From: Botryllus schlosseri
Lineage: Eukaryota
Length of the DNA: 64,000 nucleotides
Assembly (NCBI GenBank): GCA_051294905.1
Contig: CM119371.1
Span: 932,001-996,000, forward strand
Direction: 5' to 3'
Shown: in pieces, positions 35,371-59,225 of the stretch
Numbering within the stretch: the first letter of the stretch is position 1
How the letters are laid out: each line of letters opens with the position of its first letter
Translations under genes and position numbers: made by a program
The notes under the pieces: model-generated
What the model saw: only the letters and a program-made list of their open reading frames with translations
The model's database searches: none
Told to the model about the DNA's origin: nothing

Positions 35371-35510
35371 ATATCTTCGTACACTACAATAAAGCAGAAT
35401 AATTTGCGATAGATTTATCAAAAGTAAAAATTTTCTACAATAGCTTAGTAGCGCAACATGTTGTCACTCGATTTCTTGTTTTTAATATTGTTGCCTAGGC
35501 TTACCATACG

Positions 35511-37324
35511 ATGAGTCAAGAGAATACAGGCAAGGCCTGGGGAGCGGAAGTCCGTCAATTCGTGCTAGCAGAAGACGAAGAATCTACTCTAAAACAGGAC
35601 TTGGAAAGAACAGCTGCTGAAGCGCTTATACTTGCAAATGAAGATTATAAACCACCAGATATTGAAGACCCTGAGAATCAATGGGAAGGGCTGAAACCTG
35701 AGATTTGGTTACCAATCTTCGAAAAATAGAAGAACGAAATAGGCAGTCTGGAAAAGAATCTATCACGTGATTCAGGTTTACCCTACAAGTTCACGCTTGA
35801 GCTCAAAGACGAGACAGTCGACCCATTCGTAGGAAAGGCGTATACCTTACGAAATGACGTACATACAAGGGGATTGGAAAAAGAACTGGACAGATATCTA
35901 CAATTGGGCGTTATTGAAGTGGGTAACTCTGAATGGAAAACCTCACCCTTTGTAGTGGCTCAAAAACAGAACAACAGACAGAAGGAGGAAGCATTGAAAC
36001 GGCACCTTGAACAAGGATTAACGGGGGAACCGGATCCGCCTATGAGAGTAGTTCAAGATTTCGTACCTCTCAACAACAATACTAAAGCTACAAATGTAGT
36101 ACCACCTCTGATATCTGATTTGATACATAAAGCATCGGGAAGGACGAAGAAAACGCTGATAGATCTCACCAAGGCATATTATCACGTGCAGGTGCCAGAA
36201 CAATATCGCAAATATCTGGGAATTGCAGTACGAAATAGAGAACTACGTTGGAAACGTTTAGCTATGGGCCTCAAAAATGCTGTGGCAATATTCCAGCAAT
36301 CGATGAATGAAGGATTGGTAGAACCAGTAACGCGAGAATACAGAAAGCTTGCAAAAACCCATGGATGGGGAGAAGAAGAGGAAAAAGCGTGCCCTATATT
36401 CGCATACATTGATGATATTCTACTCATAACAAAGACAGATGAACAGCATCTAGTATTACTAGATCTGGTGTTTGCTCAACTTGCTGAACTTCGACTCACC
36501 ATCAGTATCAATAAGTGCTTTGTGGGAAAGAAGAAAATAAATCTACTTGGCGTGTTGCTGGATGAAGATACGGTCAAAGTACAACCTGAAAGGATCAGGG
36601 CCTTGCGTGAAATGCCACCACCCAGGAATATATTCGAACTACGCGGATATATTGGAGCTTTAAGATATTTGGCAGCGCACTTTGAAGATATGGCGATGAT
36701 ACTGGCGTGTTTTGATAGCCAGACAGGATGTGTACCAGCGTCACAAAGCAGGCGAGTACCTGTTAAATGGACACGAAAATTGCTTGAACATTACACGAAA
36801 ATGCGTGATGTTCTACTACGACCGAAAACGCTCTTTCATATACGAATGGGGCTACCAATCTTCGTACAAACAGACGCAGCGTTGGACGGGATGGGTGCAG
36901 TTCTATACCAAACGGAGAACGCAGAGCCCATTCCCACAAACAGATATATCCCGTGGCTTACTACTCAAAGAAATGGAAACCTAATGAAAAAAGTTCATAC
37001 AGTGCGTGTAAAAAAGAAATTTTGGCGGTGGTACGAGCTTTCGAGAAATGGGGTTCTATACTTCTGGGTAGACCCGTATCAATACTTACGGACAAAGGAG
37101 TAATGGGAATATTGAAGAAAGTCACTGAGGGTAACAAACAAGCTTCAGATGACCCGCAAATGATGAGATGGGTAGCTGTGATCAGCGCCTACAATATCAG
37201 AAACGTGGTTCATATTTCTACATCAGAAATATTCACGGCGGATGCACTATCAAGAATGTTTGTAGAAAACACGGCAGTGGAAGAAGGTGACCCACTGGCC
37301 TGGATAGCTATCAAGAAAGGCGGA
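35511..37324 (+). pseudogene. pol: pol: reverse transcriptase and RNase H (Ty3/gypsy- or caulimovirid-like)
   Basis: RT motifs MRVVQDFVPLN, IDLTKAYYHV, LAMGLKNAVAIFQ, AYIDDILL, INKC and NLLG. RNase H motifs QTDAALDGMGAVL, AYYSKK, KEILAV, LTD and ADALSR. In-frame TAG at 35727 and a frameshift near 36950. Confidence 0.93.
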
Positions 37325-37822
37325 ATGACAAAAAATGAGAAGGAAAAGCTTAACAGAAAATTGATTAAACATCTCAGGCATACAGAATGTATGCTACAGA
37401 AGAAGGGTTGGCACCCTATGGCATGTGCTATGAAATATGGCTATGATGATCCGAAGGAATGGATTGAGAATGACAGAATAATGATCTCGGAGCATGGGAT
37501 TGCGGCAAAACAAGGACATACTAAAGGACAGAATCCGCAAATGCAGCAGTGGCTTAACCCGGAAGGGCTAACAACATTGTTTCATGCTACTCGAAAGAAC
37601 CGAGTATCCCCTATTATGGCAGAAGGCATAGCTAAAATGGGAAGACGTTTTGTACATCTATACACGGACGAAAGAGATGCGAAGCAAAAGGGAGAAGTCT
37701 GCATCTGCGTTGACATAGAAAGACTCAAACCGCAATCACTATGGTCCTTGAATGACGCGTCGAAAGTTGTACTATCATCGGACATAATTCCTAATGATTG
37801 TATATCTATTTCAGATGAATAG
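37325..37822 (+). CDS. Tpt1/KptA-like RNA 2'-phosphotransferase domain, in frame with RNase H
   Basis: Motifs in the correct order: KLIKHLRH...GW, NDRI, IAAKQGHT, LFHAT, GIAKMGRRFVHL, ICVD, VVLSSDIIPNDCI. Confidence 0.82.
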   Translation: MTKNEKEKLNRKLIKHLRHTECMLQKKGWHPMACAMKYGYDDPKEWIENDRIMISEHGIAAKQGHTKGQNPQMQQWLNPEGLTTLFHATRKNRVSPIMAEGIAKMGRRFVHLYTDERDAKQKGEVCICVDIERLKPQSLWSLNDASKVVLSSDIIPNDCISISDE

Positions 37823-39732
37823 GAATCTACCATATTACCCTAGTAAGTCGGCTAATGCTGCTATGCATCTGAGACTGAGGGAATATGGAATGATACGACA
37901 TGGATGGAATACGAAACCTACCGCATCAGGAAATAATTACGTGAACCGTCTGGCGCTTATTACTGTGTGGCCTCTACCCAGTAACTCACGGCTAAATCCA
38001 CTACAATTAAGTATAACCAATGAAATGCAAGGAAATGACTGAAGAAAACAAAGGCCGGGGTTTGAAGAAAGCTTGAGTGAAGTTTGGAGAATGTTTCGAT
38101 CCTATGAGATACATCCTAATGTGGATAAGCTATACGCTTACTTCACTGATGGAGAATACCGTAAAGCAGGGGTTCTCAACTTCCCTTGTATCGCGGGCCG
38201 CATTTTAACAGCAAAAGACGCTGCGGGCCGCAAAACATTATTGCCATGTAATTGTGGGCTACTATTAAATTTAGGCTACTGTAGCCTATTTACCAGTCAT
38301 ATACAGGCCGATATATTCCCCTTTAAACCCTTTCAACAGAGAACCGAACTCTCTGCTTCAAACCGGAAGAGAGCAAGTATAAAATTACGGTAACTTTTGC
38401 GTTAGAGAAGCCATTATCACATTGAGCTCTCAGTCATATATAAATTAGTTAGCTTTGTCAAGTTGGTGTTTTTCGCTGGTTCCCCTCCCACGTTGGCCCA
38501 GCCTGCATTTTCTCTATGTTCACTCTGACAAAATGCACCCAGATAATTAGATATGCAGAGTCTGTGGAGTCGGTGAATTCATCCAATGCTAGGATAAAGT
38601 AGTCTACGTGACTACGTGTTTCAGAACATGCGATAAAAGATCGACTGACATTGCTGTAACTCTTTTGGTCATGGTTGAATCAGACAACTGTAGTTTCGAC
38701 ATATGCCAGGTGCTGTTGTAATTGCTGCTAAGTTCCGGAAACATCAAATACTCGCAGAATTTTATTGAAAACACACTTTCTCTAGCAAATTTCTTGGGTT
38801 TAGCGATATTCCCAGCAATTTTGAACGATTTGTCTGCAACGTCGTCGGCAATCTTAAATGCCTCGAAATATGGATTACTGGGCTTGAAACCTAGCTAGCA
38901 ACGTTATTTATAAGATCAGGCGATCTGAATAACTCCAAACGTTATGCCATACGAAAACGGTTCTTCGACAAGTATGATACAACGGTCTTCTATTTATTTC
39001 TGAGAAAACAAATTCATTGTTCCACGCTGAGTCACAAACCCAGTTTTTGCCGTTTTATTGCCCATTCCGTGCTCTTGTTTCTGTTCAAACCATTCGCGGT
39101 GAGTAAAACACTCTTTAAAAAATGTACTACGTATAGCGGGATTGTCGTGAACCAGAGTCCAACCGAATACGGATTCAAAACAATAACAATCTAAACTCGA
39201 GCATATATCAAGAAACCAGAACACATCAAAAATGATTAATTAAACGAAAGAGAGATAAGAGAGCTAAGCAGCTAAATTAATATGTAACAATACCGTGTCA
39301 GTAATAATTGCGTTCATAATGAAAGATGTCGCGGGCCGCAAAATAAACGTCTGCGGGCCGCATGCGGCCCGCGGGCCGCGGGTTGAGAACCCCTGCCGTA
39401 AAGCATTGGACAATGGAGTATTGCCGATGAAACAAAAATATTTGCAGGGATATAAATACAAATTCGGTATACTCACTACTTGTGAGTTGGCGCCTAAAGG
39501 TTGGGAAAAGAGACACAGAATATCTGTTACACTACCTAGTGTACAGAGTAAATCCAAGTACCCTCGTAAGGAGGTCCTGAAAAATTGGAACAATACTGAA
39601 CAATGTCAGCCATTACATCTATGGCAATGGAATGGAAGCAAAAACTGGTTATGGGCGAGCAAACACTTTATACCTAACGAGTTGAGAGATGATAATGTGA
39701 TTTTCGTTGGGACTGCGACATTGATAGACTGA
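37815..39732 (+). pseudogene. ORF3 of the retroelement (~225 aa), possible divergent Tpt1-like paralogue, split by a hAT insertion
   Basis: Its ATG overlaps the pol end (gATGAATAG). One TGA at 38040. The frame rejoins across the 38167-39395 insert as ...FTDGEYRK|ALDNGVLPMKQKY... Confidence 0.65.
38167..39395. mobile_element. Non-autonomous hAT element inserted in ORF3
   Basis: TIRs CAGGGGTTCTCAAC / GTTGAGAACCCCTG, with an 8-bp TSD CCGTAAAG at 38159-38166 and 39396-39403. Confidence 0.93.
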
Positions 39733-39775
39733 TATTTGTGCAACTGAACATTTAGCACTGAATACAATACTAACA

Positions 39776-41040
39776 ATGGTATACGCTTTACAGATAATAG
39801 TTACAATACCTATGTCGGAAGTGAACATATCGAGTGTGACTGAAACAACCACGGTGGAAAAGAACAACATATTTGAAATATACATACCACCTGTGAACTC
39901 GGAATGGGCCACGTTCGCATTGCTTCTGTTGTCTATTGCTGGATTATCATGGTCATTTATTGCGTTCTGCTGGACGCGGAGGATCGAAAACGAATCAGAC
40001 GGATGAAAAACAACCTATAATCCCGAGCTCGGATCTACAATTGTTGGCATAGAAGACAAGGTACACTGGTTACAGACTGAAGTCTATGATGAATCGTTAC
40101 ACGGCAATAACTCCACTCATAAATGGATACCTATAGCCGGATGGGAGGAAGTCAAGTACAACATGACATCAGAATGCGACGAAAAAGATGACACTCTTTC
40201 GAATTTTCCAACTAGTACATATGGAATAGTAAGATCGAGATCTGTGAATTATGTGGAAAAATACTTCCATAATACAACAATATTCTCGTCCCATGACGAA
40301 TATATCTCCGAATGCAGAACAAACAATGCGACAACATACCGGAAAAGATCTGAGATATTGCCTGAATTGCATCCTCTAGTGTTTGATCGGAGCGTGATTT
40401 ATGTTCGAGACAATAAACCATACCAATGGCATCATTGGAATTGGGATCCGGTATCGAATAATGCGAGGTCATGGAATGAAGAAGATATTACAGTCCTCAA
40501 TTTGGTGGAATTCTTCACGGCATATCGCATACAAGTTTCATTGCTATTCCAAGAATTTGCCGAAGTTCATGCTAATTGTACGACTAAGAAAGAAGCTAGA
40601 GAAGCTAGTGCAATTTAAAGAGGGGAGAATTAGGTGGCAACTCAGCCGAATAAGTTGGTCATATTCAATCAATTATTCCTATGACAGTAGGCTAAAGTAC
40701 CTTTGTGGCAGGGATTTTTCGACAAATGGCATCACCATGCGCTGAAAATAAGGACAGAATGGACCATAGATTGTTCGTTCTATGGCAAAGAATCGTCCCG
40801 AATACGACCCGAGACACTAAAGGCCGATCCGTATCTAGTCATGACCTGGGGAAAAACAGATAAGCGATTTAGTAAAACGAGCCCTAAAAGAATGCATGAA
40901 GAAATGAAATGCATTACTGGAAGTGCGGCAATACCAAGCGGTGCGCATCTCGCATTCCCAATGTTGTCTCCAGCGGAGACAATTGAAGCGTAGCCATTTT
41001 GTCTCCTTGGCTACCTAGTCGTCGGAAATTTTACCTGGGC
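39776..41040 (+). pseudogene. env: env-like glycoprotein, 5' part (signal/anchor and surface subunit)
   Basis: ORFs 39776, 40163 and 40703 share one frame, and 40007-40162 is open after TGA 40004. Hydrophobic segment WATFALLLLSIAGLSWSFIAFCW, several NxS/T sequons, Trp/Cys-rich. Confidence 0.65.
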
Positions 41041-41639
41041 GCTTATGGGTTTACGCATTGTACCTTCATAAAACGGACTAATAATCAGGTACTGTTAGTT
41101 ATCAGCCGTTTATCTTTTGATATTGCGTTTATACTAAACCATTTATTCCTATAACTTACAGATTATAACATCGGGAATTCTGGGAATAGAATAAGAAGTA
41201 CGATAGAAACAGGATATAACTCAGATGTCAGAACAGCAGTTAGCTATCGAAGTAAGATTCACAACTCTGAACTAATATCACTGATCACTGGGTGATCCTT
41301 TTAAATTTTTCATCCATATGCATTTTCACATCCATGTACACTGTACAGGTGATTCCAAGATAATGTCGAGGGGGGTGGGGATCAGTCGGTCAGGTGTGCT
41401 GTGCTTATAATATAAGTTATAAGCTTATGGCTGTACAAAACGTTTGAAGGCAGTATCGAGTTTGTGAGGAGTTATAGCGAGGATGAGGAAATACAGTGTA
41501 AGCGGCGATATCCACTTACTTTTTATCTGTGAGATTTTAGCATTTATAAGGGAGACAATTTTTCATCTAACATTTTGCTTGATGCCAGCTTGACACTTTG
41601 AAAAATTTTCTATTTACAGATACATGAACAGATGATTGT

Positions 41640-41810
41640 ATTATGCATTATGCATTGCAGCTGAAGGAATGCTTAAGAACACCTGATTATTACTATGGTA
41701 TGTGTTCAGTTTCCCTTGGTAGCAATGATGCTCTAAAGAACGAATGGATTGGAGACATCAAGAGAGAAAATTGGAAGCCCTCAAAATATTAAAGGATCTG
41801 CTCCAAAGAA
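41640..41810 (+). pseudogene. THAP-domain fragment in a non-retroviral insert (~41050-43870) that interrupts env
   Basis: Hand translation gives LKNEWIGDIKRENWKPSKY*RICSK, the THAP W...R..WxP....ICS signature. Insert ends are not resolved. Confidence 0.6.
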
Positions 41811-42148
41811 TGGAAAGAGCTCTGAAACAATGGAATGAGCTAGAAAGATCCGCGGAATAGAGACTGACACTGAAAGAAACTGTGACATCGAGCAGACGAG
41901 CACTAGGCCAAGGTGGATGCCAGTTTAAGAAACTGCAACTGGTCGTTCGGCATGCTCCTATCTGTGTGTGTCTTGTTCAGATGAAAATATAATCTGACGA
42001 TTTTTGATTTATTTTCACCAGCGGCCTGACTTTTCCGTGCTTAGTAGCAATTTGGTCGAAAAGCTGTCACAGACCCAATGAAATCGTCTCGAGACCCTCA
42101 CTTAACTAGGGGGTGGAATTTCTACAGAAATCATTTATGTATAATTAT

Positions 42149-42979
42149 TAGGGCGGTTTTTTTTGACATGTCAAAATTGTAGCGTTAGGTCAAAATTTGT
42201 CAAAATTTTTCATCAAGTCAAAATTTTTTCGACATCTGCATTTCGTTTGTATCGTAGATTCTGCACTGTCGGTGTACATATCATTTGATATTTTAAAGCT
42301 TGTAGCCTATTTTATAGGACTACCGTTGTAAACGGCTAATTGTCTGCTCATTGTGAACCGTAAACGGTCAAATAAAACAAATAGGTAGACATGGTGTTAT
42401 GGTCAACATACCGCAATATCCTAACTGAAGAAAGACTTCTTGGACATTGCATCATTCTTACATTAGGAAGCGCACGATGAAAAATTGTGATGTAGACAAC
42501 ATTGTCAGAATAAAGCAACACGGTGTGTCACCAGCAGTGTACGCACAACTTGAGTGTTGTCAGCCAACAACTGCTGCTGTTAAACGTCCTTGGCAAGCTT
42601 CTTAGTAAGGACATGCACTTTCTACCCAAGAATGTAGGAAAGTATCTCTCGTTGTACTACAACATCTTTCAATTATTTCTACCATAATACATATTGTAAC
42701 CACTGGAATTCTTCATAGGGCCAGATTTCGTTAAAATATTGTTTTTTTCATGTAAAAAGTTGCCTGTTTCTAAGCCAAAAACGTTTTTTTTCAGGCCAAA
42801 CTGCGTCGTTAGGACAGTCAGTTCCAGCCGGAAATGAAGATTGAGTGGTACAATTTTAACATTATGTGGGAAAACACCTAATTTGCATATGTTAGGCCAA
42901 TATTTGGTCAAGATTCAGTTCAAAATTTTGATTTTTTAGGTCAAAATTTCCCTTTTTTTTAGGTAAAAAAAACGCCCCA
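42149..42979. mobile_element. MITE
   Basis: Ends TAGGGCGGTTTTTTT / AAAAAAACGCCCCA, with an 8-bp TSD ATAATTAT at 42141-42148 and 42980-42987. Confidence 0.75.
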
Positions 42980-44016
42980 ATAATTATACATACATACATC
43001 TAGCTAAAAATCGCCAAAAGAAAATACTATTGTAAAGAACTATTTCCATATATTTTAACAGTTCTACCATAAAAATCTTAAAACCTCGTATACCCTAACC
43101 TAAAGCCAGATTTCACCCAAAAGATTTCAATGTTGACAATCGGCAACTATATCAACTCCACCAGGAATTATTTCAGTAGCATCAATGTCAACATGTTTCT
43201 TTCTTGGCTAGTTCTGTTTTAAATGCAAGTGTTCAGCATTCCTGACACACAAGCAATTACATGAATTAGTTTTGTTGTTCTGTTTCTGATATTTTGGTTT
43301 TACAGGGTACCGTATTCAATGACAAGCCTATTTGGTCATCTCAATCTGCAAGAAACTAATTATCCTTCTTTATTTCGGTGGCACAAAAGACTGGCATATT
43401 TCCGGCAACGTTGAAAACTATTTATGAATTGCCCAGTTGAACCATACTCTTTCTATGTCCATATGTGGATCGCTGAAATAAAAATACCGTATATCACAAT
43501 GATCTCGTTGATATATTTCTGGTGCATAGAACCGTATAGTCATAGTACAATTACAGTTTAATAACCGTGGCAAAATCATGGACAGGGCAGAAGCAGTTTA
43601 GGTTTAGATGACTTCTTTGAGACATCGAGAGCAAACTTGATGTGTTCCTGCACTCGCAAGCAAACATCACCGAAGGCGATTAGCATCAGTGCTACTCAAG
43701 ACTGCTTCACGTTGAGTTTGATGTAGTCAGAAGCTAATCGTTGAAATATTCGCGTCGGAATGTCGTTGCAATGCAGTATCCCTTGAAGTTACACACGAGT
43801 CTTCGCCGTTTTAGATCCATCTATGGATACTGAAGTCGCAAATGCAATCCATGGCGTCATTCAAGGCTGACATACCTATTAGAAAGGGTATACTATAGTT
43901 CATTAATATGGTCTGTGTTAGTTTTGTGATAAAACATACTTATTCCAGACGAAAACCCCTCGAAAAGCGTAAAACACGGAGAATCCCAGTAGTTCACCAT
44001 AAGCACCAGTGCGCAA

Positions 44017-46573
44017 CAGTGATGAGCGGATGTTGGATTTTGAGAATCCGAATCCGTCCGACAGTTTTGGTGTCTGCGGAACTATCCATCCGACTCCGGA
44101 TAATCTCATCCAACTATCCGAATTTATCCACAAATCTCTTACAAGAATCCGAAAAATCCTTATCGAATAATGATATCGCAGAATATCAATTGTAAAGCTG
44201 AGCTTAGTTACAGTTCTGCACTAGAAGATCACGAATTGTATCTATGGAATGAACGAAAATTGGAATTTTAATTATAGGAAAGTTAACGCAAAGAAACAAA
44301 GCTACTAATTTGAAGTAAGTGTGCGAATGAAAGTGGAATCTCGATCAAAAGCAAATGAAAAATGACAAAGATTATTAGGCCATGGCCATATGTAACAATC
44401 AGGCATTTAACCATATTACCAAATATATATCAAGAAGTAATAGTAGCAAGTTGTGACCATGGAATTTTACAATCGGGAGATGGTCAATATTGGATGCGGA
44501 TAAGCCACATTTTACCGACAAGTGCTGGAAGGCGTGAAGGCCTGTTTAGAAGCAACTTGCTGATGCTTATAATGCCTTTGGTCAATCAGTTCAAAGCTTC
44601 GAGCATAACGCTTATAGTCGAGTCACACGAAATGTCAATAATAGCACCATCCTGAATGTCCCTCAATCTGTCCAAATTTCCTCTCCAGTAGCTGGTCAGT
44701 AGTTGTCTTGCCAACTTGTTTATTGGAAGAGAAGAAACTCATCTTCAACTGTGCTGCATCCTTGGCCTTTCGGATATGGTTTGTAAGGTTCATTGTACCA
44801 CTTGAAAACGTGTGGTGTTTACTTGAACATAGTAATTGTAGCATTCAGCAGAGCCAGTGTCCCATAAATCCGGATGCAATCCCTCCACACTTCACTATTG
44901 CTGTGCTATCTCTCAAGACGTCGACTTTCTTCAATCCATTATAATGGAGAAACGAAACTCCGACAGTACGGAATCATAGCTCAAATTGACACTCAGACGA
45001 GGAGTTTGACAACATTCAAGGTCTTCAAATAATGCAATACACTAGTTGATAGAGCTCCACTCAAGAGACATGACGCATCACTAACGCACTGATCGACACT
45101 CCTTGGGATTGACTTTCAAACTGTTTGCATGGTCTCTCGTTGAAATCATATCGAAAAGCACCATAATCACGACAAAGTCTTTTTTCACAATTCTTCAACT
45201 GAAATCAAATTTACTTAAACAGACCATTGCCTGACAAAAAAAAACTAACAGCTTTTTCTTGTATGGCTCAGTGGTTCTGGATGATTGATTCCGTCAATCA
45301 TATTGGAGAAAATATAGCAGCTGAAGGAAGGGAAGAGTAAGCAGGAGAGTTGAGTAGGTTTGCTTTCGTTGTAACGGTATATAGGAATTATGGATTTTAT
45401 AGCCTTGTTATATGTTATTAGTTTGCCTTAATATGACATGCATGTATCTTGAATGATTTCAAACAGGCTGGTAGGCTACTGTACCGTCAAGGCATCATTA
45501 TATTAATTATCATATATTTTATCTGTGTATATATCTTCTTACATAATGTTCTATATAATTTTCTGACTACAGAAAGTTACTTGTACATGTTTGTATGCAT
45601 ATTCTTATTTGAGTGACCGGGCTGCAAGTGTGTGAATAGCTGTTAACTCGACGTGCTAAGCTGACGAGAAGTCCAAGTCCACACGGGGAATACCTTCTCA
45701 CGGAACGGAGTTATTACATTGTTAAACGTCATCAGGATATATTCCGTTATGATCATGAACTGCTGGAAGACTCATGGTAGCTAAAGATTGTGCCGTAGCA
45801 CAAGCACCGCGGTATAGTGTTGATCGAAAGGGTATCATACAACTACTGTGGCAGCATGAAAATCATTCATGCTACAAGTACGCAAAGAGGGATTTGACTT
45901 ACCGGTATATTAATCTACAGAAGACTGCCACAACAACAACTTTGAAGATTCTAGAAATTGCATGCCCTATTGTGACATTCATCAGCAATGGGCTCAAAAA
46001 CTACATGTGAAGGCGGGAAGCAAACGCAGTTCTGTGACTGATGTTGAAACTATACCTTCAATTTTGCGAACTTCAGACACTGCTCTGCGAGCATACCGTA
46101 CTGATGATGACCATGTCAGGCGAGCTCATGTCCAATCATACCATCGTTTATCAGTTCACATATTATAAATCGTTAGATTGGCAAGTATGGTATGCTTGAT
46201 GTGTTTTAGCTAATAAATCTGATAACATCGCTGATCTTATAGTATTGTCTACTCTTGAATGGTTAGAATGGTAGTGGTAATAGTTTATCTATATTATTTT
46301 GGACTCTTGACAAACATTTTTAGACTGCTACCTGTCATATCGTAAGGTGTCAGCTGTCTGTTTTTGGTTATTGAATTGATGACTTTTTTTATAGGCCTGT
46401 AATCAAATCTCACATCTGGTTACAACTATCCGGAAATATCCTATCAAAAGTTACAACTATCCGACAATATCCGAAAAAATATTTGTGATAATATCCGAGT
46501 CCTATCCGACTGCCACAAAATCGTCTAATATCCGGTCCGAATGCTATCCGAGTCCGTCCGATGCTCATCACTG
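44017..46573 (-). mobile_element. Deleted hAT element (BED-finger remnant) inserted in env
   Basis: TIRs CAGTGATGAGC / GCTCATCACTG, with an 8-bp TSD GTGCGCAA at 44009-44016 and 46574-46581. SSGTMNLTNHI remnant at ~44770-44840 on the minus strand. Related to 49561-51867 in the opposite orientation. Confidence 0.88.
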
Positions 46574-46581
46574 GTGCGCAA

Positions 46582-48510: not shown

Positions 48511-48833
48511 AACAGATTGTAGCATACAATAGTTAAAATGGAATCCATAACGACGACTCATGTAAAACAAATTTGTGTGACATTGAAATGAATCTGAAAC
48601 AACACTACATGATATTCATTGGTAATCAAGGAAGGATATTAGCGCCGATTTTGTCGTATTTCACATGCCATGGTACATGAGATCTATGGATATTCCAGGA
48701 AGGTGTCTGAACAGATATCGCCTGATGATGCAATAAGCACATGCTACCCATTCGGTAACAGAATCTGGTACTGACAAGAGGTATGGCCAGAGCAGTTGGA
48801 AAGAACGAGTCCCCATCAATCATGAAGTAGATT

Positions 48834-49493
48834 TTGACGAGTAATGCATCACCAAAGGGAGTCATAACGCCTGCGAGACCAGCAAATAGTCGGCCGTCGA
48901 CAAGTGCAGAAGAAGATCAGGCTATCGAAACTGTGGACAAATCGCAATTATCGCAGAGAGCTCGAAAAAGTTACAATCGAATGCTTCGAGAAAAGTCTAA
49001 TTCATCGATCAAAATGTCCAAAGAAACGAAGGCGGCGTTCGAAAGATATAAGCGTATGAAGATACGAAATGATCCTGAACATTGGCAGGATGTCAGAATG
49101 TGTGAAATTTTAATGCATATGACGGAGCCTAATTACCAACAACTTTTCAAAAAAACGCGAATGATGAGACACAATGAACAAAAGGCATTGAAGGAGGAAA
49201 CGAAGCAAGAATTGCCCAAAGGAGTTATGCTTGCTAGCAAAGAAATACTGGGAGGAAATAACATCCCGAAAGGTGCTTTGCAATCTGACGAACGAATTCT
49301 AACGCCTGGAAATGCTATTTCCATTGGTAAAAAGACGAAAAGAGAGCTGCGAGCAGCATTGAAGAGAACACGAGTCTGTGTTTTAGCCGCAACGCACTGC
49401 GATTTGTGCCACGAGGAAGACGAAAACTGCATATTACATCAGACTATAGACTGCAATAGCACAAGGATTAAAGGCCGAAAGACAAAGATTTAA
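48834..49493 (+). CDS. Accessory ORF of the retroelement: basic, helical, with a Cys/His cluster (HCDLCH...C..H...C)
   Basis: 219 open codons, co-oriented and downstream of env. No recognised family, and no integrase HHCC or DDE motifs. Confidence 0.5.
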   Translation: MTSNASPKGVITPARPANSRPSTSAEEDQAIETVDKSQLSQRARKSYNRMLREKSNSSIKMSKETKAAFERYKRMKIRNDPEHWQDVRMCEILMHMTEPNYQQLFKKTRMMRHNEQKALKEETKQELPKGVMLASKEILGGNNIPKGALQSDERILTPGNAISIGKKTKRELRAALKRTRVCVLAATHCDLCHEEDENCILHQTIDCNSTRIKGRKTKI

Positions 49494-49560
49494 ACTAATA
49501 TGTTCAATTAGTTTCCCCGGCTTTTAGGGTGATTAGCGTGCGCCAAACGCTGCTATGAAC

Positions 49561-51867
49561 CAGTGATGAGCACCGGAGCGGAGTCGGAGTGGATTCGGAG
49601 CGGAGTTTTGCCAATTTTGTGATACCCGGAGTGGAGTCGGAGTTTACAACAGAAATTTTTCCGGAGTTTTACGGAGTATTGTGAGTTTTGCCCCCGATAT
49701 CTTTCGATAGCTTTGACCAGAAGACACTATTGATTACAAACCAAAACACAGACAGTTGACACCTTGTAAAGTTGTAATATGACTGGTAACATGCAAAAAT
49801 GATTGACAAGTGCATAAAAATCAGCCATCTGCACTGCAATTGGGGACTGGAGAGTAACCTAGTGATCTAGCAAGGCATTTCCGCTGAGCAGTGTCTGTAG
49901 TTCACAAACTTGAAGACACCCAATATCGTTCGCAGCGCATCATTTTCTCCCTGCAATGAGATGCAGTCTTTGAATCCACTGCTGAATGTCACCATATTAT
50001 GAGATAAGATCTCCAGAATCTTCCACGTTGCTGTCATTGCAGTCTTCTATAGTCACATCATATTTCTCCTTGCGTATTTGTTTCGTAACTAATTTTCATG
50101 CTGCCCCAGTAATTGTGCGAAACATTTACAATCAGCCACATACAGCGGGGCTTCCCTATGGTACAGCCTTTGGCTACCCTGATTCTTCCAGCAAGTTGAT
50201 GATCATAACGGAATATATCCCATTATCCTGATGACATTCAATATAGTAATAGGTCCATTTTGTGAAAATGTATTCCCAACGTTGGTATCAGTTGTAAGAT
50301 AACATCCGATACCACTTTTGTGATAACTTTTCGCAACTTTCATCGTACTTGCAATTTGCAGTGAGAGATATCGATAATAAGTGTTACATCAATATTACCT
50401 TTATATCTGTGAGAAATATACATACAACCAGCAAGTATCTGGATGGAAACAATAACAATAACTTATGCAATGTGTTACATGATTTAATGACATTGCGATG
50501 AATTTTCGCTAGTAAGATCCGTTCACAGAGGCATACCAGCATCTAAGCCCGTTTTAAAGATTTCAACAATACATAAATCACTAAGGTAAGCTGATCTTAC
50601 CCTGTAAAAACAGAATATTCCGAATTTCTGAACAGCCACACTAAATAACTACAACCGTCTGCTTTGCTCTGCTCGCATCAACTCAACTACGCTTCCTTCA
50701 ATATTGATTGACGTAGTCAGTCATCCAGAACTCTTCTGAATTTTCGTCATGTAATGTTTGGTTTGATTGAGAAGTGACTTTGATGTGATGTGAAAAATCA
50801 GCACCGCAATCAAGTTTCTGCTGCTGGTCTGTCTCAGACTCCAAATTCCAGATATCATGTATCAGCTTCAAAATTGGAAGTCACTAGTCATTTAGTCAAC
50901 TTCAAGGAGCGTCGATCGGTGCGTCAGTGATGCATCATGTATGTTTAGTGCAGTGCAGTTCCATCAACTGTCTCATGGCGATGCAGAACTTAATTTACTG
51001 AAACCTGTGATGTAATCGTCGATTTCAGTGGTGTTAGTGGTAGTTAGTTCGAACTGACTGGTCTTCCTTCGTCGTTTTAATATAATGGCTGAAGCACCGT
51101 CGACGTCAAGTGGGTTACTCACTAAGACGCAGAAAAAGAGTGACGTGTGGAAGGATTTCACTCTGATGCTGCATGATAATAACGGCCAGTATACTGGGTT
51201 TGCGAGATGTCAAAATTGCAATGTTCAGCTAAAGCATCACAAGTTGACAAGTGGTACGTCGCATCTTCGAAGACATATCGAAGCTTGTAAGAAGAATTGA
51301 TTGCAGTTGAAATGCAAGTAAGCGAGTAATCAAAGGAGAAGGTGGTCATGGGGAACACTGATCGCCGGGTGGAGAATACCGAAGAAGTGCCGGTTTGCCG
51401 TGGTGTTGTGCAGAAGACGTTTTGCCATCCAGATTTACGGTGAGACGTAAGTTCGATGAGGAGGCTTCATCTTTGAAGCAGAAGCTGTCAGAGGAACTAA
51501 GAGTTGCTATCAAGTGTTATGGGCTGGCTGGCATCACCACAGATATGTGGACCGATCTAAAGGGTCGCAGTTCTATTAGCTTGACTGTCCATTTTGTTGG
51601 AGAGAACTTGACTCTCAGAAGTAATGTTGCGACTGTTCGGCAATTCACGGATACTAAAAAAACTGGTATGAATATCAGACAGGCTATCGAAAACATCGAT
51701 TGGGATTCTTCGACAATGGTCTGAATATATTTCGGGGACTGGACAAGATTCTTCGGGTTATCTCGGAGTCTGGGATTGAGATCCCCGGAGTCGGAGGGAT
51801 TTTGCCTCAGAGACCAAAGTTGTCGGAGGGACTCGGAGTCTCGAAAAGCAGACTCCGCTCATCACTG
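49561..51867 (+). mobile_element. Internally deleted hAT element with BED finger and partial transposase
   Basis: TIRs CAGTGATGAGC / GCTCATCACTG, with an 8-bp TSD CTATGAAC at 49553-49560 and 51868-51875. BED finger KSDVWKDF...CQNC...GTSHLRRH (51085-51300) and catalytic TTDMWTD...SLTVHF (51395-51724). Confidence 0.92.
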
Positions 51868-52399
51868 CTATGAACCTCCGGTCGACATTCCCATCGACAG
51901 ACCTGTTCGAGAAGTGTACATATGTAATAACTTGTGGGGATTGGGTGGTCTTTATAGATAGGTCTAACTAGGTAGGAACATCTCATTGCCAACGGAGAAG
52001 GTTTTGCCTGCTGGAAAGGGGCTCAATTGGAAACCTGTTGTGCATAATGCATGGGCAATAACTATTGATATTTCCAATTGATTAGTAACAACATTTGGTT
52101 GTTTGGATAAAATTCGAAGTGGGGAATAAGGTGCGAATGGCGAGAGTTGGACTCCGTGTCCTTAAACGGCGTATCCCGACATTATGACTGGTGATGTTGT
52201 CGTCAAGACGACAGAAACCAGACATGGATGAAGGGCTGAATGCTGTGATGGGACGACTTGAGAAAAGCTTGAACTTGACACATCTTAGGACAAGAAACTG
52301 GCTTATGGCCATGTTTGGATCAATCTGTCAGCCTTGTTCCTCCTAGGTCTAAGTCAGTAAATGAGGGGTCTGAGCAACAGGTCATCGCGGCGATTAGGG

Positions 52400-55300
52400 T
52401 TTATGCTGTTTTGTGGTGTATGTCAATTGATGCATTTGTTGGTAATTTATTGTGTAGCGATCTGAATTTTGAAATTGAGCTGCATACACGTTAATTGTGT
52501 TGTGTCGCTTTCCAGACGATATGCCTAAGCGAAGTAGGGGGAGATAAATTAGAGAAAATGAACAATTTTGATTCTTGTTGGAAAATATTGCCGTTCTAAA
52601 TAAATTAATGGATAATTTGGATGGCAGTAAGAAAATCAAACATGATTCGGAAAGAAGAATAAAGAATTTTGTACCAATTACATAAGACGGGTATATTCGC
52701 TATCAAATGTTGAGACTTAAATGGAAAACGTTCTGGAATTGTTAAAAACAACCAGAATGTTTTGCGGGGGCAATGAGAACGTTTGGGCGGAAATGAAATT
52801 GATATTTATGTATGTTTGGTTAAGAAGGGAGAAAAAGTCAAAGCAATAAAAGATTGATCGAAAAATACTGATACAAAGTAATTCATGGCGAGAATTCGTG
52901 AATAAATAATAAATAAATAAACGCCGGCGAATAGTCTGGAGAGTCGAGGCAGCACAATAGCATGTGTGCAGACGTTGATGAGACATGAATTAACATTTGT
53001 GATGTGTAATGAGTTAATGATACATGAATTAACATTTGTGATGAGTAATGAAACGTGAATTAATATTTTGGGATATGAATTGATAATTGTGACGGTTGAT
53101 TTGTCAGTATAGTAACTGTACAATGTGTGTATTTGACACGATAACATGATAATGTATTACGATACTAAACAGGAAATACTTGCCTTGATGTATCCGAAAC
53201 ATAAATGGGGTCATACATACCAGTGTAACATGTGCCTTTGTATAGAACGAATTCATGAATTTAATGTGGCAATGCAGAGCGATTTGCTTCTGACACAATC
53301 ATAAGTAATGTGCCTACAATATGCAGTAATTAGTAAGCATACGACCCGGTTGGAATACACCTTATGCTGAAGTATGTTTATTGTTGGAGTAGTCATGTTA
53401 TGATTGTGAAATAAAGTGTCTATGATATATGGTAATAAGCATGTAACCCGGTTGGAATATACCTTTTGCTAAACACCGTATATTATTGATGTAATTGTTG
53501 AAGTAATTGTACTGTAGTTGCGAAGTAAAGTGCCTATTAGGGTTGTCCAAAATTTGGAAAATCTTACAAATCCTCCGTTGTAATGTCTTATTCTATAGAT
53601 TATTGATAAAAAACGACACTGAGCCAGAAAGAAGCTCACAGGAAGGCCGTTAAGATTTCGTGCAAAGCGTTTGAAAGTAGCTGCCGTAGAATGGGCGTGC
53701 CACCGACCATAGAACGGCGAGAAGACTAGCAATCACGAAACCACGGCTCTGGATTGGCTAATCGGCTATGCTTCAATGACCACGACAGCAGCAGCTTGCT
53801 GTGTAGGTGATCAAGGAGTCTGCTACCGGCGGCGATTCTGAAAGCCCATTGTATGTAGGTTGACAGATAATGATTTAGGATTGATTCAGGGTATGTTGAG
53901 GTACGAAATACATGATGAACAAACAACAGCTGCTTCACGAAAACGTCTAAAGCATGACCGCTTTATTATGAAGGGAACCGCCGTAGCCTGCATGCCTTGT
54001 TTTCAACGAGAGAAAGCATAGGCGCTTATGCAAGTAGCGACGGATTCCTAGTTTCAGAAAGATCTCCTTATTGAATACAAAGATAAAGCTTAACAATGAC
54101 ACTACAACTTGTGTGATCTTATTGGGCTCAGGTTGTAGTACATGGTTGAAGTTTTGAAAGCTCTAAGGATCGGCTGAATCAGCGGGTTATGCTTGGCACT
54201 TGTCAGATGCTTGCATCAAAATGTATTCACTTGCAAGTGTTGTCAAAGTCCTTGATGATGACGCAGAAAAGAGGTGTAAAAGTAAGCACATACTATGCTG
54301 GACATGATATGGCAAAGTCCTTAATGTCGCGCAGAAAAGGGGTGTAAAAGTAGGCACAGACAATGCTGCATAGTGCATAGCACCCAGCATAGTTTGTACA
54401 TCATATCAAGCATAGTCTGTGCTTGCATTTAGACATCGTTTCTGCGGCATCATTAGGGACTTTGAAAACACTTACAAGTGAATTCAATTTGCTGTAAACA
54501 TCTGACAAGTGCCAAGCCTAAGCGACGTTTGATTCAGCCGATCCCTAGAGCATTGAAAACTTCAATTATGTACTGCAACCTGAGCCCAATAAGATCACAC
54601 AAATTGTAGTGTCATTGTTAAGGTTTATCTTTGTATTCAATAATGATATAGCCTTTCTGAAAGTAGGAGTCCGTCGCTATTTGCATAAGCGCCCATGCTT
54701 TCCCTCGTTGAAAACAAGGCATATAGGCTACAGCGGTTTCCTTCACAATAAAGCGGTCACGCTTTAGACGTTTTTGTGAAGCAGCTGTTGTTGTTCATCA
54801 TGTATTTCGTACCTCAGCATACCCTGAATCAATCCTAAATCAATATCTGTCAACCTACATACAATGCGCTTTCAGAATCGCCGCCGGTAGCAGACTCCTT
54901 GATCACCTACACAGCAAGCTGCTGCTGTCGTGGTCATTGAAGCATAGCCGATTAGCCAATCAAGAGCCGTGGTTTCGTGATTGCTAGTCTTCTCGCCGTT
55001 CTATGGTCGGTGGCACGCCCATTCTTCGGCAGCTACTTTCAAACGCTTTGCACGAAATCATAACAGTCTTCCTGTGAGCTTCTTTCAGGCTCAGTGTCGT
55101 TTTTTATCACTAATCTATAGAATAAGACATTACAACGGAGGATTCGTAAGATTTTCCAAATTATGGACAACCCTAGTGCCTATGATATGCGGTAATGAGC
55201 ATGGAACCCGGTTGGAACATACCTTTTGCTTAATGCCGTATATTATTGATGTAATTGTGAAGTAAAGAGTCTATGATATGCAGTAATAAGCATGCGACCC

Positions 55301-55940
55301 GGTTGGAACATACCTTTTGCTGAATTCTGTATATTATTGATGTAATTGTGAAGTAAAGAGTCTATGATATGCAATAATAAGCATGCGACCCGGTTGGAAC
55401 ACACCTTATGCTGAAGCCTGTGTATTGTTGATGTAATTGTGTATTAATTGTTGAGTAATTGTGCTGTAATTGAGACGTAAACGCTGATTGGAGTATTTGG
55501 TTGTATTAAGGTGGATTGGCTTGATTGGATACTGATTAGCTACTAATTAGTAATAAATTCTGGTTGAAAGCTGTATGAGTTACGTCTGAAAAGTAACCAT
55601 ACGACGGAATTAAAGCTGTGTGTGAGCTACGCCTGAAAGGTAGCTACACACGACGGAAGAATTGGACACTACTTGTCATCACTACTTGTCGTATACTGGC
55701 ATCCCTGCCTGACAATTTACAAGTGATACTGCATACTACAAAGGAACTGGACACTATATTATCACAAATTGTTGCACACTGGCATCTTTGCCTGACAATT
55801 TACAAGTGATACGAAAGATATAGGTGACCCGTATGGAGGGCATTGTGTCTTCACAATCTATACGCTGTCATAGCTATATAAACAGGTGTAAACCCTGTGT
55901 AATTGGAGTTCCCACCGAGATAGAGAGAGATATAGAGAGA
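52400..55940 (+). promoter_or_regulatory. Long non-coding LTR-like/intergenic region of the retroelement with tandem repeats
   Basis: AATAAA cluster at ~52900-52921. Five ~90-nt units with core ACCCGGTTGGAA(C/T)A(C/T)ACCTT at ~53340, 53445, 55205, 55297 and 55387. Paired direct repeats at 55570-55660 and 55695-55812. Confidence 0.55.
53538..55175. mobile_element. Foldback hAT-type element with ~670-bp inverted arms
   Basis: Ends TAGGGTTGTCCA / TGGACAACCCTA, with an 8-bp TSD GTGCCTAT at 53530-53537 and 55176-55183. Mirror ORFs at 53469(-) and 54981(+). Confidence 0.93.
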
Positions 55941-55942
55941 AC

Positions 55943-58803
55943 ATGGACATTGGGCCAGAGTCCAAGTTAAAAAAATTGTGGAGGCGGACCAGATCTGCAG
56001 ATTCAAAAACCACTCGATCTCTGAGTAGCTCTCGTAGGACATCTCGCGAACATTCTGCTGACAAAGGTCATGTGTCGGAAGGAGAGGTCACGGTTTCTGG
56101 TGATGAAACTACCAGTGTTTATACTGTACGGCAGGGAAGGTCTGCGTCACGATCGGGCATGTTCAGCAGAAGTCGTACCCCTTCGAAAACTCGAGCAAAG
56201 AGCGTGGAGCGCATTGAAAAATTGAAAGATACAAGACAACAGATAAAAATAACTCAACAACGTTATAACGAGGTTGTTAAAAAACATTCGGACTTGATTA
56301 AAAAGGCGAAAACGGACGCTGATCTTCAAACAAATGGCGGGGAAGATATTGCCTCACGTCGAAAAAGAAATAAACAGGGCTTACAAGTCCATCTCTGAAA
56401 TACGGAAGGAGTTGGATGAGCTGAAGAAAATACATAAACGCCGGTTGAAAGGTATTGACCCCAAAGAACTAGCTAGATCATTGGAAACCGCTACAGTTAT
56501 GGGTGAACAAATAGCTCATGCTAGCATTCTTCGAAATACCTATGGGACACACCCAAGCTTCAGTATGACTCCCAAAACGCCACCGTCGTACCAAGAATCG
56601 ATGGAAGGAGATAACAGAAGTCAGGCGCCGTCTGCACCTGATGATAATGAGCTAGGATATCCCATTGTCCGCGAAGCCAACACTACAAAACAACAGTCGG
56701 TAGGAACATCAGTGGATACGGTGAACAGGGGGCATGTAAATATGCTAATTTCGGGAGAACCTGAACCGGGCGAGCCGGAATGGAAAGAATATGAAGAAAA
56801 TCAGTCCGAGTGGAGGGATAGAAACCCTGAACGTATACTATACCCTACCAGAACTAGGCGTATATTGGGAAGACAGCTTAATATTGGTAAAAGAGGCGCG
56901 CCGGGATATACACCAGGCATTGACCACGAGATAGTGGCCGAATGGGAAGATCCCTATGACGAAGACCCCATATTATATTCCACGAGAGACAAAAAAGAAG
57001 AATTAATATACAAATTGCAGACAGCAATAACAGGGATAGATGAGTTTCAAAAGGACTAGGAAAAGGAACGTAATGAACTGTGGATTGCCCATAAGGAAGA
57101 AAGGAGGCAAACCCAGAATTATCAGGAAGCCGATGACAGGGCGGAATATCTTGAGGGTCGAATTAAAGATTTACTCAACGAATTATCACAAATGCGAGTA
57201 AAGTTGCAACAATCAAAGAATTATGAGAACCAGGCAATATATCTTGCGTCACGATGGGAAGATGAATATCGCGGTGTTTGTTCGGATTTGAAACGAAATA
57301 AGAAAGGAAAAATGACTTACAAGCTAACCTAAAGCTGTCCGAATCGCGTGTGGCTGAGCAAGCAGCGGAGTTACTTGACAGATTGGAAGATACTGGACGT
57401 TCGCATGTACGTCTACCCTCATCGTTAGGTCCGGACAACAGCGATGTTCGCTCGACGCCTAATCGCGTCCACAATACAGCAGGTAGAAAAGAAATTCCAT
57501 GCGAAGACGAGTCACGACATAATCACGAATACAATATAGAAGGCAGAGATGAGGTTACACGCCGTGGTGCGTCACAACAACGCAACCCGAACTGTCCAGA
57601 AGGCAGGAATGAGTTTATGCGCGGCGGTGCGTCGCTACTACGCAACCCAGCCTATAATACAGCAGGCAGAGACGAGTTTCAACACGACGGTTGGTCACAA
57701 CAACGCAATCCTGGCTTTACTATACTTGGTGAAGAAGAATCTTACGAGCTTACCAGAGATCAGCTGAAATACCTAACACCAGGCAGACGTCAACACATGT
57801 TGCCGGATACGGATAAATTCAAAGAACTCGTACAACGCCTAGACGATCCTGAAGACAAACCCATAGTTACGTGGATATTAAAACAAATCAAGAACACCAA
57901 CACGGGCAGTGGCCATGAACCAAGATATAAATTATTCTACCAAGCTCTGCGTAGTAAACTCGAAAAGGCGGGCAGAATAGAACAGACGCTTAATTTATCT
58001 CGCGTCTACAATGCCAATGAACGGGACACTTGGAGAGATATGATGGATTCCCTTATACAATGGTATCCTAACAGTCGCACGGACAAAGAGGAAGTCATTG
58101 AGAATTTCGCTGAACGCTTCAGTTGGAAACAAATGCCAGGACCCCAACTTTACGAAGTTTTGAGAAAATTGTCAATGAATACGCATGAAGTGATAATGGA
58201 TTCTCCATTGGGCATGAAGTTATACAGAAAAATTAAAGCTGTACTACCCTTTATGTACAAAGGCACGCTACGCACTCAACCTTTAAATTCACGGATGGAT
58301 TGGAAAGAGTTTGGGTCCATGATGCAAGCATGGTGGCAAGATGAACAAAAAGATCGGGCTGCAAAACGGGCACGCGGATATATGACGGAAAGGCAAGATT
58401 TCACCGTGAGACGTTCTGCATACGAAAATGATGATAACAGGGGACGAGCCTATAATATTGGAACTCCAGTCGCAGCGCGAACTAGGGGAGCACAAAGCAA
58501 CAGACGTCCTTTGAACAGGCCGAACGCGTCAAGTGTACCAGCGGCAAAATTGCGCACTCTGAACCGAAACAACAGGCCGGAGTCGGCACCTCCAGTAATG
58601 ACACGTCAAGAAACACTGCAGCCCACCAGAAATAGGACAACTTCAACATTAGTAGGCAACCATAGTGCACCACGAACTGAACATAATCCGCAACCAATTT
58701 CAAGCTGGCCACAAGCTTTGAATGCTGAAGAAGCCAGGCGCATCTACGATGACGGGGGAGAAAAAGACCAATATCTGGTATTACCCAACATATTTGAACC
58801 ATT
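55943..58803 (+). pseudogene. gag: gag-like ORF (frameshifted): RS-rich N-terminus, coiled coils, late domains, helical capsid-like region, Arg-rich C-terminus
   Basis: Consecutive ORFs 55943, 56334 and 57350. PPSY at 56580-56591 and PSAP at 56628-56639. TWRDMMDSLIQWYP resembles the retrotransposon gag TW..L...F...F motif. Cut at ~58804 by a MITE. Confidence 0.7.
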
Positions 58804-58804
58804 G

Positions 58805-59225
58805 GGGTTATATACTGAGGATTTGTCCTCTTTTTTGACTTTTTTGAAAGTGTCCTCGGAGGACGACCTTTTGTCTCCTTTTTTGAGATTTTGTCCTCTT
58901 TTTGAAAATTTAGGCAGATTTAGAGCAAATTGCGAGTGATATGCCGCATATTAGCACAGAAGTGAAGCTCCGGCGGGTATTTCGGAGTGAAAAACGGTGA
59001 TTTTAGCTCTGAGCGAAAAGATGACATTTTTTTAAGTCATCCACCTGCCAATGTAGAGTAAAAAACGTTATTTTGAGCTCTGAGCAGAAGTGATGACCTT
59101 TTTTTAGTCAGCCGATCACAAAGTGGGAAAAATTAACCGGTTTTTCAGAATTTTACTCCGGTTTTGCAAGTTGCAAATTTCTGAAAAAGTGTCCTCTTTT
59201 TTTATTTCCAAAATAGGGTAAGCCT
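58805..59225. mobile_element. MITE (GTCCTCTTTTT-rich) truncating gag
   Basis: Similar to ~8490-8745 (TTTGTCCTCTTTTTTGAAAATTT...GCAAGT...GTCCTCTTTT). The last ~45 aa of ORF 57350 are read from it. Confidence 0.65.

Follow-up and report, generated by a model that had tools for sequence, protein, structure and literature searches.

A circularly permuted, env-bearing retroelement fragment without integrase and with a Tpt1/KptA-like pol domain in Botryllus schlosseri

How does a retrovirus-like element come to lie in a chromosome with its pol gene in front, its gag gene at the back and no integrase of its own? This question is raised by a 64,000-nucleotide (nt) stretch of Botryllus schlosseri DNA (contig CM119371.1, positions 932,001 to 996,000; hereafter the window), which is eukaryotic in composition, with a GC content of ~0.40, and dense in transposons. 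A decayed germline copy of an env-bearing, retrovirus-like element, which belongs to a lineage not described before, was found at ~35.51-58.81 kb on the + strand. Once five hAT-like inserts are subtracted, the element's own sequence comes to ~12.4 kb, in line with the 12-13 kb given by the original prediction made for this locus. The order on the + strand is a pol gene encoding reverse transcriptase (RT) and RNase H, an open reading frame (ORF) termed ORF3, env, a small basic ORF, a ~2.4-kb non-coding region and gag. The same order had been claimed beforehand and was borne out by the ORFs, the Pfam matches and the removal of the inserts, and the previously proposed limits (35500..58803) proved correct within tens of bases, as the homology limits lie at ~35510-35530 and ~58812. 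What the window holds is a single permuted fragment without integrase: the copy is circularly permuted relative to gag-pol-env, and both of its ends fall in one short stretch of the map.

These ends can be placed by comparison with relatives of the element. The homology of pol begins at ~35510-35530, which corresponds to residues ~210-220 of the relative P0058 and lies in the protease-RT spacer, and that of gag stops at ~58812 directly after 'PLGLYT', ~15 residues short of the position of the zinc knuckle in the relative L001. One end thus lies near the C-terminus of gag and the other in the pre-RT spacer, both within a ~1.2-kb stretch, and the earlier placement of both in the gag/protease/RT junction is upheld. 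L001 is a DNA sequence of 4776 nt that carries a gag-like ORF with a CX2CX4HX4C knuckle, a D-S-G protease, RT, RNase H, a Tpt1-like domain and a stop. Because its order is gag-CCHC-protease-RT, a stretch of ~1.2 kb as measured in L001, comprising knuckle and protease, is missing from our copy, and neither of the two was found anywhere in the 64-kb window by tblastn of the relatives. According to the original prediction the element had been opened within the protease region; the ends flank the missing knuckle and protease and lie ~1.2 kb apart, not at one point. When this copy and L001 are combined, the canonical map would read gag with a CCHC knuckle, D(T/S)G protease, RT, RNase H and Tpt1/KptA-like domain, followed 3' by ORF3, a class-I-type env, the small basic ORF and the ~2.4-kb regulatory region, with no integrase.

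The whole fragment was found to be enclosed by one hAT-like miniature inverted-repeat transposable element (MITE; TE_C, 35496..59226, + strand). This MITE is recognised by its inverted ends, TAGGCTTACC at 35496-35505 and GGTAAGCCTA at 59217-59226, and by an 8-bp target duplication, TTGTTGCC, whose copies at 35488-35495 and 59227-59234 match across 23.7 kb. The retroelement fragment starts ~15-35 nt inside the left end of the MITE. On the other side the right arm (~58840-59226), which matches a small element copy at 8469-8748, starts within ~30 nt of the end of gag, and the terminal inverted copy GGTAAGCCTA lies ~410 nt to the right of that end. Since the fragment is enclosed by a single MITE, it came in, or was moved, as a unit that already had these two ends. 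The break between retroelement and MITE is not placeable to the base, as the MITE copies are too diverged, and at most 3-4 ambiguous bases are shared. The flanks of the MITE (35373-35496 and 59225-59368) run together without a gap at 30032-29735, in another copy of the repeat around it, and the duplicated word is single there; the MITE therefore lies inside an older repeat, and the retroelement fragment inside the MITE.

The absence of a long terminal repeat (LTR) pair at the flanks, which the original prediction had reported, holds for the element itself, as no LTR pair of its own was found in the window, where a permuted copy would be expected to retain one LTR at most, but a ~490-nt direct repeat does flank the region outside the MITE (31478-31969 versus 59362-60766, 80-90% identity). 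Its right copy consists of 59362-59719 and 60643-60766 with an insertion of ~920 nt between them. This repeat was rejected as the LTRs of the element because of its position beyond the MITE and because the non-coding region contains no copy of it. The older repeat, with the MITE and the retroelement fragment inside, is situated between its two copies, which may represent the LTRs of an old non-autonomous host element.

The pol gene (35510..37822, + strand) is cut at its 5' end and comprises a pre-RT spacer, RT with a YIDD motif, RNase H and a C-terminal domain at ~37334..37819, with Pfam E-values of 1.2e-19 for RVT_1, 3e-15 for RT_RNaseH and 1.8e-9 for PTS_2-RNA. It carries two lesions, an in-frame stop (35727-35729) and a frameshift near 36930, and contains neither protease nor integrase. 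RT and RNase H had been recognised before, but the domain at the end of pol had been overlooked. Judged from its sequence, this domain, which occupies the usual place of integrase in retroviral pol, is Tpt1/KptA-like. Tpt1/KptA is an NAD+-dependent RNA 2'-phosphotransferase with an ADP-ribosyltransferase fold.

Three lines of evidence bear on this assignment, namely Pfam (PF01885), a family profile compared with the PDB, and Foldseek. Over the ~160 C-terminal residues of pol, the match to PF01885 reaches 38.4 bits (cutoff 26, E 1.8e-9). Among the relatives, P0012, P0016 and P0162 score 42.5, 30.3 and 29.9 bits respectively, and P0013 falls below the cutoff with 22.3; P0017 and P0001 have no Pfam match to PF01885, yet their C-termini align with the family. 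When a profile of six family sequences was compared with the PDB, all 12 of the 12 matches at E<=0.01 were Tpt1/KptA structures (best 1.2e-13), and they span chain residues 26/36-178 of ~180, which is nearly the full length. A model of the domain built by AlphaFold from the family alignment reached a predicted local distance difference test (pLDDT) score of 82, and in the Foldseek search of the PDB ranks 1-19 at E<=0.001 were all Tpt1/KptA, with template-modelling scores of ~0.47-0.50. The domain thus has the two-lobed Tpt1 fold with a winged-helix RNA lobe and an NAD+ lobe.

The catalytic tetrad of Tpt1 is given as Arg-His-Arg-Arg in a published account (PMC6333775). The candidate arginines of this tetrad (R190, R223 and R279 or R280 of the window ORF) are invariant in all six family sequences, and the candidate histidine (H191) is kept in five of the six, being F in P0017. 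R223 and the arginine of RRFVHL were found to align with Tpt1 arginine residues. The LRH motif lies outside the local alignments, so that its equivalence to the first tetrad pair is by spacing only.

No integrase was detected in the window or in the family. None of 137 six-frame ORFs (at least 60 residues, 29.9-61.8 kb) had any Pfam match at E<=0.01, and thus none to rve, Phage_integrase or RVP, and a local integrase hidden Markov model (HMM) matched no ORF of at least 40 residues in the whole window and none in L001 or L002. The same HMM matches the metagenomic loci L003 and L004 and 91 of the 165 collected proteins, yet none of the 18 family proteins. Both scans agree with the original prediction that an HHCC/DDE integrase is absent, and the Pfam scan agrees equally with the claimed absence of a tyrosine recombinase. 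The sequence evidence supports a lineage without integrase.

The relatives that define this lineage were obtained from an exhaustive protein search in which 46 of 31,859 matches at <=1e-3 reached <=1e-30. Those with 32-49% identity are P0012, P0013, P0016/P0162, P0017, P0018, P0001 together with P0058, and fragments, and all other protein matches are ordinary Ty3/gypsy polyproteins at 25-29% identity. The RT was said to have a charged insertion reminiscent of caulimovirids; an insertion of ~20 residues before RVVQDF is indeed present and common to the family, but a special kinship with caulimovirid RTs is not supported, the nearest outside RTs being those of Ty3/gypsy at 25-29% identity. In a midpoint-rooted RT-RNase H tree of 115 tips, which consisted of the window and protein-search matches only, without reference families, the window forms a clade with P0012, P0013, P0016, P0017 and P0018 with a support of 0.996. 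Fifty of the 165 proteins were omitted from this tree as their match did not span RT positions 130-380, and P0162 was omitted as a near-duplicate of P0016. A metagenome scan yielded four loci, of which two, L001 and L002 (1.4 kb), are family members; the remaining two, L003 and L004, were rejected, being integrase-bearing and ordinary gypsy-like. The scan of IMG/VR with the pol alignment gave 17 pattern matches, none of which was confirmed.

The Tpt1/KptA-like domain is common to at least five of the relatives, none of which has an integrase. This domain forms the end of pol in the window, L001/P0001, P0012 and P0013; P0018 terminates after RNase H. The protease of the family is seen in relatives only, by its D(T/S)G motif and a weak Pfam match in P0018 (E 0.0087). 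Longer fused forms of pol were found only in P0016 and in three ordinary integrase-bearing polyproteins. In the ORF of P0162 (and P0016), the Tpt1-like domain is followed without a stop by a complete Exo_endo_phos domain, which resembles apurinic/apyrimidinic (AP) endonucleases (E 1.9e-18), and in P0122, a related RT-RNase H protein of 435 residues, a dUTPase (E 3.1e-32) lies directly after RNase H, with no integrase before the protein ends. The AP-endonuclease-like domain of P0162/P0016 could provide another route of DNA entry or a function in cDNA repair.

The genes downstream of pol are tightly packed, as had been noted earlier: the ATG of ORF3 (37815) overlaps the stop of pol (37820-37822), and the ATG of env (39776) follows closely after the stop of ORF3, although the spacing is 43 nt with the intervening MITE removed and not 44. 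ORF3 (37815..39732, + strand; ~235 residues) is made up of the pieces 37815-38166 and 39404-39732 with a MITE between them, contains one internal stop at 38040-38042, and has no Pfam match and no recognisable family. The decayed env (39776..48510, + strand; ~1000 residues; pieces 39776-40934 and 46668-48510) has an N-terminal hydrophobic segment, 14 N-glycosylation sequons and a furin-type RSKR site, downstream of which a long predicted helix is followed by a strong C-terminal membrane anchor. These features of env fit the enveloped virus that had been proposed. No sequence homologue of env was found among 2010 candidates. Its look-alikes in the ESM Atlas are class I fusion proteins (hemagglutinin, Baculo_F/Gypsy and paramyxovirus F) at 0.90-0.91, a weak lead, and an AlphaFold model of env made without an alignment was too poor for fold comparison (pLDDT 31.9). 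An accessory ORF of 220 residues from stop to stop (48831..49493, + strand) is basic with a C-terminal cluster of Cys and His, and no family was found for it in Pfam. The final gene, gag (55943..58812, + strand), is cut at its 3' end and decayed, with ~950 residues in three pieces (55943-56398, 56298-57059 and 57302-58812) and two frameshifts. Residues 463-505 of the window gag match residues 73-113 of the L001 gag (E 1e-5), just before the CCHC knuckle of L001. The ESM Atlas look-alikes of gag score 0.87-0.89 (Retrotrans_gag 0.87-0.88), which is under the lead level of 0.9.

Between the accessory ORF and gag lies the non-coding region (49494..55942, + strand), which has ~2.4 kb of its own sequence in the parts 49494-49560, 51876-53537 and 55184-55942 and a read depth equal to that of the coding parts. 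A 91-nt tandem repeat with ~5.8 copies occupies 53303-53537 and 55184-55481, two direct repeats of ~65 nt occur at 55655-55815, and a TATA box, TATATAAA at 55875, is found 68 nt upstream of the gag ATG. AATAAA motifs are also present. Two tandem units of ~45 nt at 55571-55655 each contain a 10-12-bp hairpin that has a bulge of one base and a loop of 9 nt, G(U/C)CUGAAA(A/G), with GACGGAA after it; the stem sequences are not the same in both units, yet pairing is preserved through changes on both strands (z = -3.3). A scan for primer-binding site (PBS), polypurine tract (PPT) and poly(A) motifs gave a polypurine run at 52822 and a tRNA-like complement at 52096, but they were not convincing. The window contains no tRNA genes, and no ribozyme was found in an Rfam scan of the full 64 kb at E<=1, where the sole match was weak and microRNA-like. 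That match, a hairpin at 14054-14115 resembling the mir-1252 model (35 bits against a gathering score of 70, E 0.034), is probably due to chance.

The element is interrupted by five hAT-like inserts, each with inverted ends and a perfect 8-bp target duplication. ORF3 contains a hAT-like MITE (38167..39395; inverted ends CAGGGGTTCTCAAC and GTTGAGAACCCCTG, duplication CCGTAAAG) of high copy number, with a read depth of 1e4-1e5. A 5.7-kb insert in env (40935..46659, duplication GGCAATAC) contains in turn a nested hAT-like element (44017..46573; inverted end CAGTGATGAGC, duplication GTGCGCAA). Another nested hAT-like element (49561..51867, duplication CTATGAAC) is an inverted relative of the latter, and a foldback, that is palindromic, hAT-like MITE lies at 53538..55175 (inverted end TAGGGTTGTCC, duplication GTGCCTAT). 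The inverted repeat seen around env (45.7-46.6 kb versus 49.6-50.3 kb) was accordingly set aside as a pair of oppositely oriented members of one hAT-like family with separate duplications. Three DNA runs, made on two samples, yielded contigs with the insert-free joints 40926>46660 and 49549>51865, so that env and the junction of the accessory ORF with the non-coding region are uninterrupted in other copies or alleles. All dated insertions in and around the element (38167-39395, 44017-46573, 49561-51867, 53538-55175 and 35496-59226) are hAT-like with intact 8-bp duplications, pointing to a burst of hAT-type activity here that was either long or recent.

The read depth over bins specific to the element is far under that of the nested MITEs, suggesting that other copies are few, ~3-8 by a rough reading of single contigs, and 85-96% identical to the window; none of the longest contigs listed is exactly equal to it.

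Taken together, we think it rather probable that the copy derives from circular or head-to-tail concatemeric DNA which the host joined into its chromosome, because an order running from pol through the regulatory region to gag is impossible from linear cDNA. Such DNA would have been broken once with the loss of ~1.2 kb comprising knuckle and protease, the broken molecule would have been joined into the chromosome by host end-joining, and the five hAT-like elements would have landed in the fragment afterwards. The Tpt1/KptA-like domain would most likely act on the element's own nucleic acids in replication, either by removing RT-blocking 2'-phosphates at RNA ends or at ligase-sealed junctions, or by ADP-ribosylation of 5'-phosphate ends, a reaction described for Tpt1/KptA in one article (PMC12678800). 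In both cases it would be an accessory of replication or repair and not an enzyme of integration.

A wider reading, which we offer tentatively, is that the copy is the fossil of a new family-level lineage of enveloped animal reverse-transcribing viruses with circular DNA and no self-integration, in which a pol-linked Tpt1/KptA-like domain replaces integrase and prepares the nucleic acid, and whose sister lineages carry an AP endonuclease or a dUTPase instead. In this episomal life cycle the domain would remove 2'-phosphates from repaired or ligase-circularised genomic RNA, or would cap 5'-phosphate ends with ADP-ribose. Several observations weigh against the circular or concatemeric source that we prefer. 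The relatives lie on contigs of 246-451 kb (361 kb for P0162), which makes them integrated copies in several genomes; a transposon would account for this no less than repeated endogenisation. With one pair of junctions examined, no extrachromosomal form was seen, and in ~6% of one RNA run (X23) six of the 11 element-specific bins had no reads and the other five had a mean depth of at most 0.8. The other 3-8 copies might have spread as DNA passengers of the MITE. No PBS, PPT or ribozyme could be assigned, and the ends are 1.2 kb apart on the map, where two independent truncations would come this close in an estimated ~1/5 of cases. The Tpt1 domain of the window is ~10 residues shorter in the RNA lobe than that of P0012, and P0017 has F for the candidate tetrad histidine. 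Finally, the non-coding region could be a single LTR and the source circle a by-product of an LTR-type element. The episomal pararetrovirus of the original prediction fits the integrase-less lineage and the circular source, but the circle may equally be such a by-product, for example a 1-LTR circle.

The last point leads to an alternative that we regard as possible although somewhat doubtful, in which the lineage is a retrotransposon of LTR type whose integrase has been lost or is supplied in trans, the fragment comes from a dead-end 1-LTR circle captured at a chromosome break, and the non-coding region represents an LTR and leader. The Ty3/gypsy-like RT and RNase H, with integrase-bearing polyproteins as the nearest outside relatives, the LTR-like content of the non-coding region (enhancer-like tandem repeats, TATA box and AATAAA motifs) and the large genomic contigs of the relatives would all be expected of such an element. 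The absence of integrase from all 18 family proteins and from the window is harder to reconcile with it, as are the lack of a second copy of the non-coding region or of any TG...CA-bounded repeat in the window, the TATA box that leaves little space for R, U5 and PBS in the 68 nt before the gag ATG, and the missing recognisable PBS. In another alternative, two tandem proviruses sharing one LTR would have arisen by unequal recombination and been truncated independently by later deletions, which is the scenario that had been named as a refutation of the original prediction. Tandem arrays of LTR elements are known, and a chance coincidence of the truncation points has an estimated probability of ~0.2. 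The outer ends, on the other hand, adjoin both arms of one MITE within tens of bases, so that on either side a deletion would have needed to halt precisely at MITE sequence, and with neither a flanking LTR of the element nor an integrase present we judge this origin very improbable.

Permuted DNA might also be copied from circular RNA, if genomic RNA were cleaved, a host RNA ligase of the 5'-phosphate (Trl1) type sealed it again, the pol-linked Tpt1 cleared the 2'-phosphate, and rolling reverse transcription yielded concatemeric cDNA of which a piece was captured. This route would unite the missing integrase, the Tpt1 domain and the permuted copy in one explanation, the junction left by such a ligase is the textbook substrate of Tpt1 according to the account cited above (PMC6333775), and the two bulged hairpins of conserved shape in the non-coding region might be taken as a sign of it. 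The loops of these hairpins fit no nameable cleavage motif, though, and no ribozyme or other known RNA family was found in the window at E<=1. We hold the route to be improbable. An assembly artefact in the form of a repeat misjoin is hardly credible as the cause of the gene order. The region is rich in repeats, and the longest contigs are only 85-96% like the window. Against this, the MITE ends and the 8-bp duplication agree across 23.7 kb, the internal joints are supported by independent runs, and the nested inserts all have clean duplications. A circular or concatemeric source joined in by the host accordingly remains our preferred account of the copy.

Two further repeats were observed in the surroundings of the element. 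The sequence to its left, at 34075-35370, belongs to a very high-copy element with a depth of 1e5-1e6 in three runs, which is present in RNA reads as well; hundreds of loose ends were found at both of its borders, together with internally deleted forms (joints 34066/34068 > 35371/35373). Further upstream, a C-rich satellite at 24800-25800 contains CCCTAA-like (telomere-type) units, with a GC content of 0.50 and a strong GC skew. It lies between inverted repeats of ~700 nt (22249-22946 and 28716-29410) with 94-98% identity, which are ~6-7 kb apart.

Among known systems, the sequence comparison identifies the env-carrying Ty3/gypsy elements (Metaviridae, errantivirus-like) as the nearest kind, although the integrase that defines them was looked for without success. 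The Ty3/gypsy-type layout of gag, protease, RT and RNase H was recovered, with the protease in relatives only. Shared features are the CCHC gag (as in L001), the D(T/S)G protease, RT followed by an RNase H of Ty3/gypsy type (PF17917/PF17919), an env that follows pol as a gene of its own and shows class-I (F-type) features, and the closest outside RTs. The element differs in that it has no integrase and no detectable LTR pair in the window, and in that a Tpt1/KptA-like domain stands at the place of integrase, an extra ORF3 lies between pol and env, and the RT fingers carry the charged insertion of ~20 residues. To our knowledge, all known animal gag-pol-env retroelements have an integrase. In a 2026 survey of metazoan errantiviruses (PMC13524379), an intact integrase was required for inclusion, and the survey would therefore have missed this group. 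Surveys that demand an integrase or LTR pairs have a blind spot for such elements.

The integrase-less reverse-transcribing viruses known to us (caulimovirids, hepadnaviruses and nackednaviruses) are differently built. Caulimoviridae and their endogenous counterparts in plants share a pol of protease, RT and RNase H without integrase and a zinc-knuckle capsid protein, and the endogenous copies are often permuted or in tandem, their circular DNA having been joined in by the host. They are non-enveloped viruses of plants and are set apart by the env-like gene found here, by a host that the types of sequencing run suggest to be an animal, by the lack of a movement protein (no Pfam match) and by the Tpt1 domain, which is absent from the family as far as searches show. 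Hepadnaviridae and Nackednaviridae are likewise animal reverse-transcribing viruses with circular DNA and no integrase, and hepadnaviruses are enveloped. Their genome is ~3 kb, however, with a protein-primed P that has a terminal-protein domain and with no protease or knuckle gag, in contrast to the ~13-kb gag-pol-env layout and the Ty3/gypsy-like RT of our element. DIRS, Ngaro and PAT elements likewise combine a Ty3/gypsy-related RT and RNase H with the lack of a DDE integrase, and their intermediate is circular DNA; unlike them, the present element has no tyrosine recombinase in any frame and no split or inverted terminal repeats of its own, and it has an env and, in its relatives, a protease.

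The domain at the end of pol invites comparison with viruses that carry KptA/Tpt1. A 2022 survey of NAD+/ADP-ribose domains (PMC9503650) lists a picorna-like virus, a nidovirus, sawfly nucleopolyhedroviruses and a mimivirus, where the domain sometimes lies within a polyprotein and where its role is described as RNA-end clean-up or RNA repair. The likeness is that of a cellular RNA-end clean-up enzyme taken up by a virus. The difference is that none of these carriers is reverse-transcribing, and the words 'reverse transcriptase' and 'retrotranspos' are missing from the survey's text. As judged from titles and the starts of abstracts, no report was found of a Tpt1/KptA or other ADP-ribosyltransferase domain in the pol of a retroelement. 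An env-bearing Ty3/gypsy-like clade with an RNA 2'-phosphotransferase in place of integrase would, if true, amount to a new organisation of the retroviral life cycle, and the element would be the first retroelement found to link reverse transcription to the NAD+/ADP-ribose system of RNA repair. Set beside all of these systems, what is new here is the Tpt1/KptA-like domain at the end of pol, together with a permuted fragment that lies wholly inside a hAT-like MITE.

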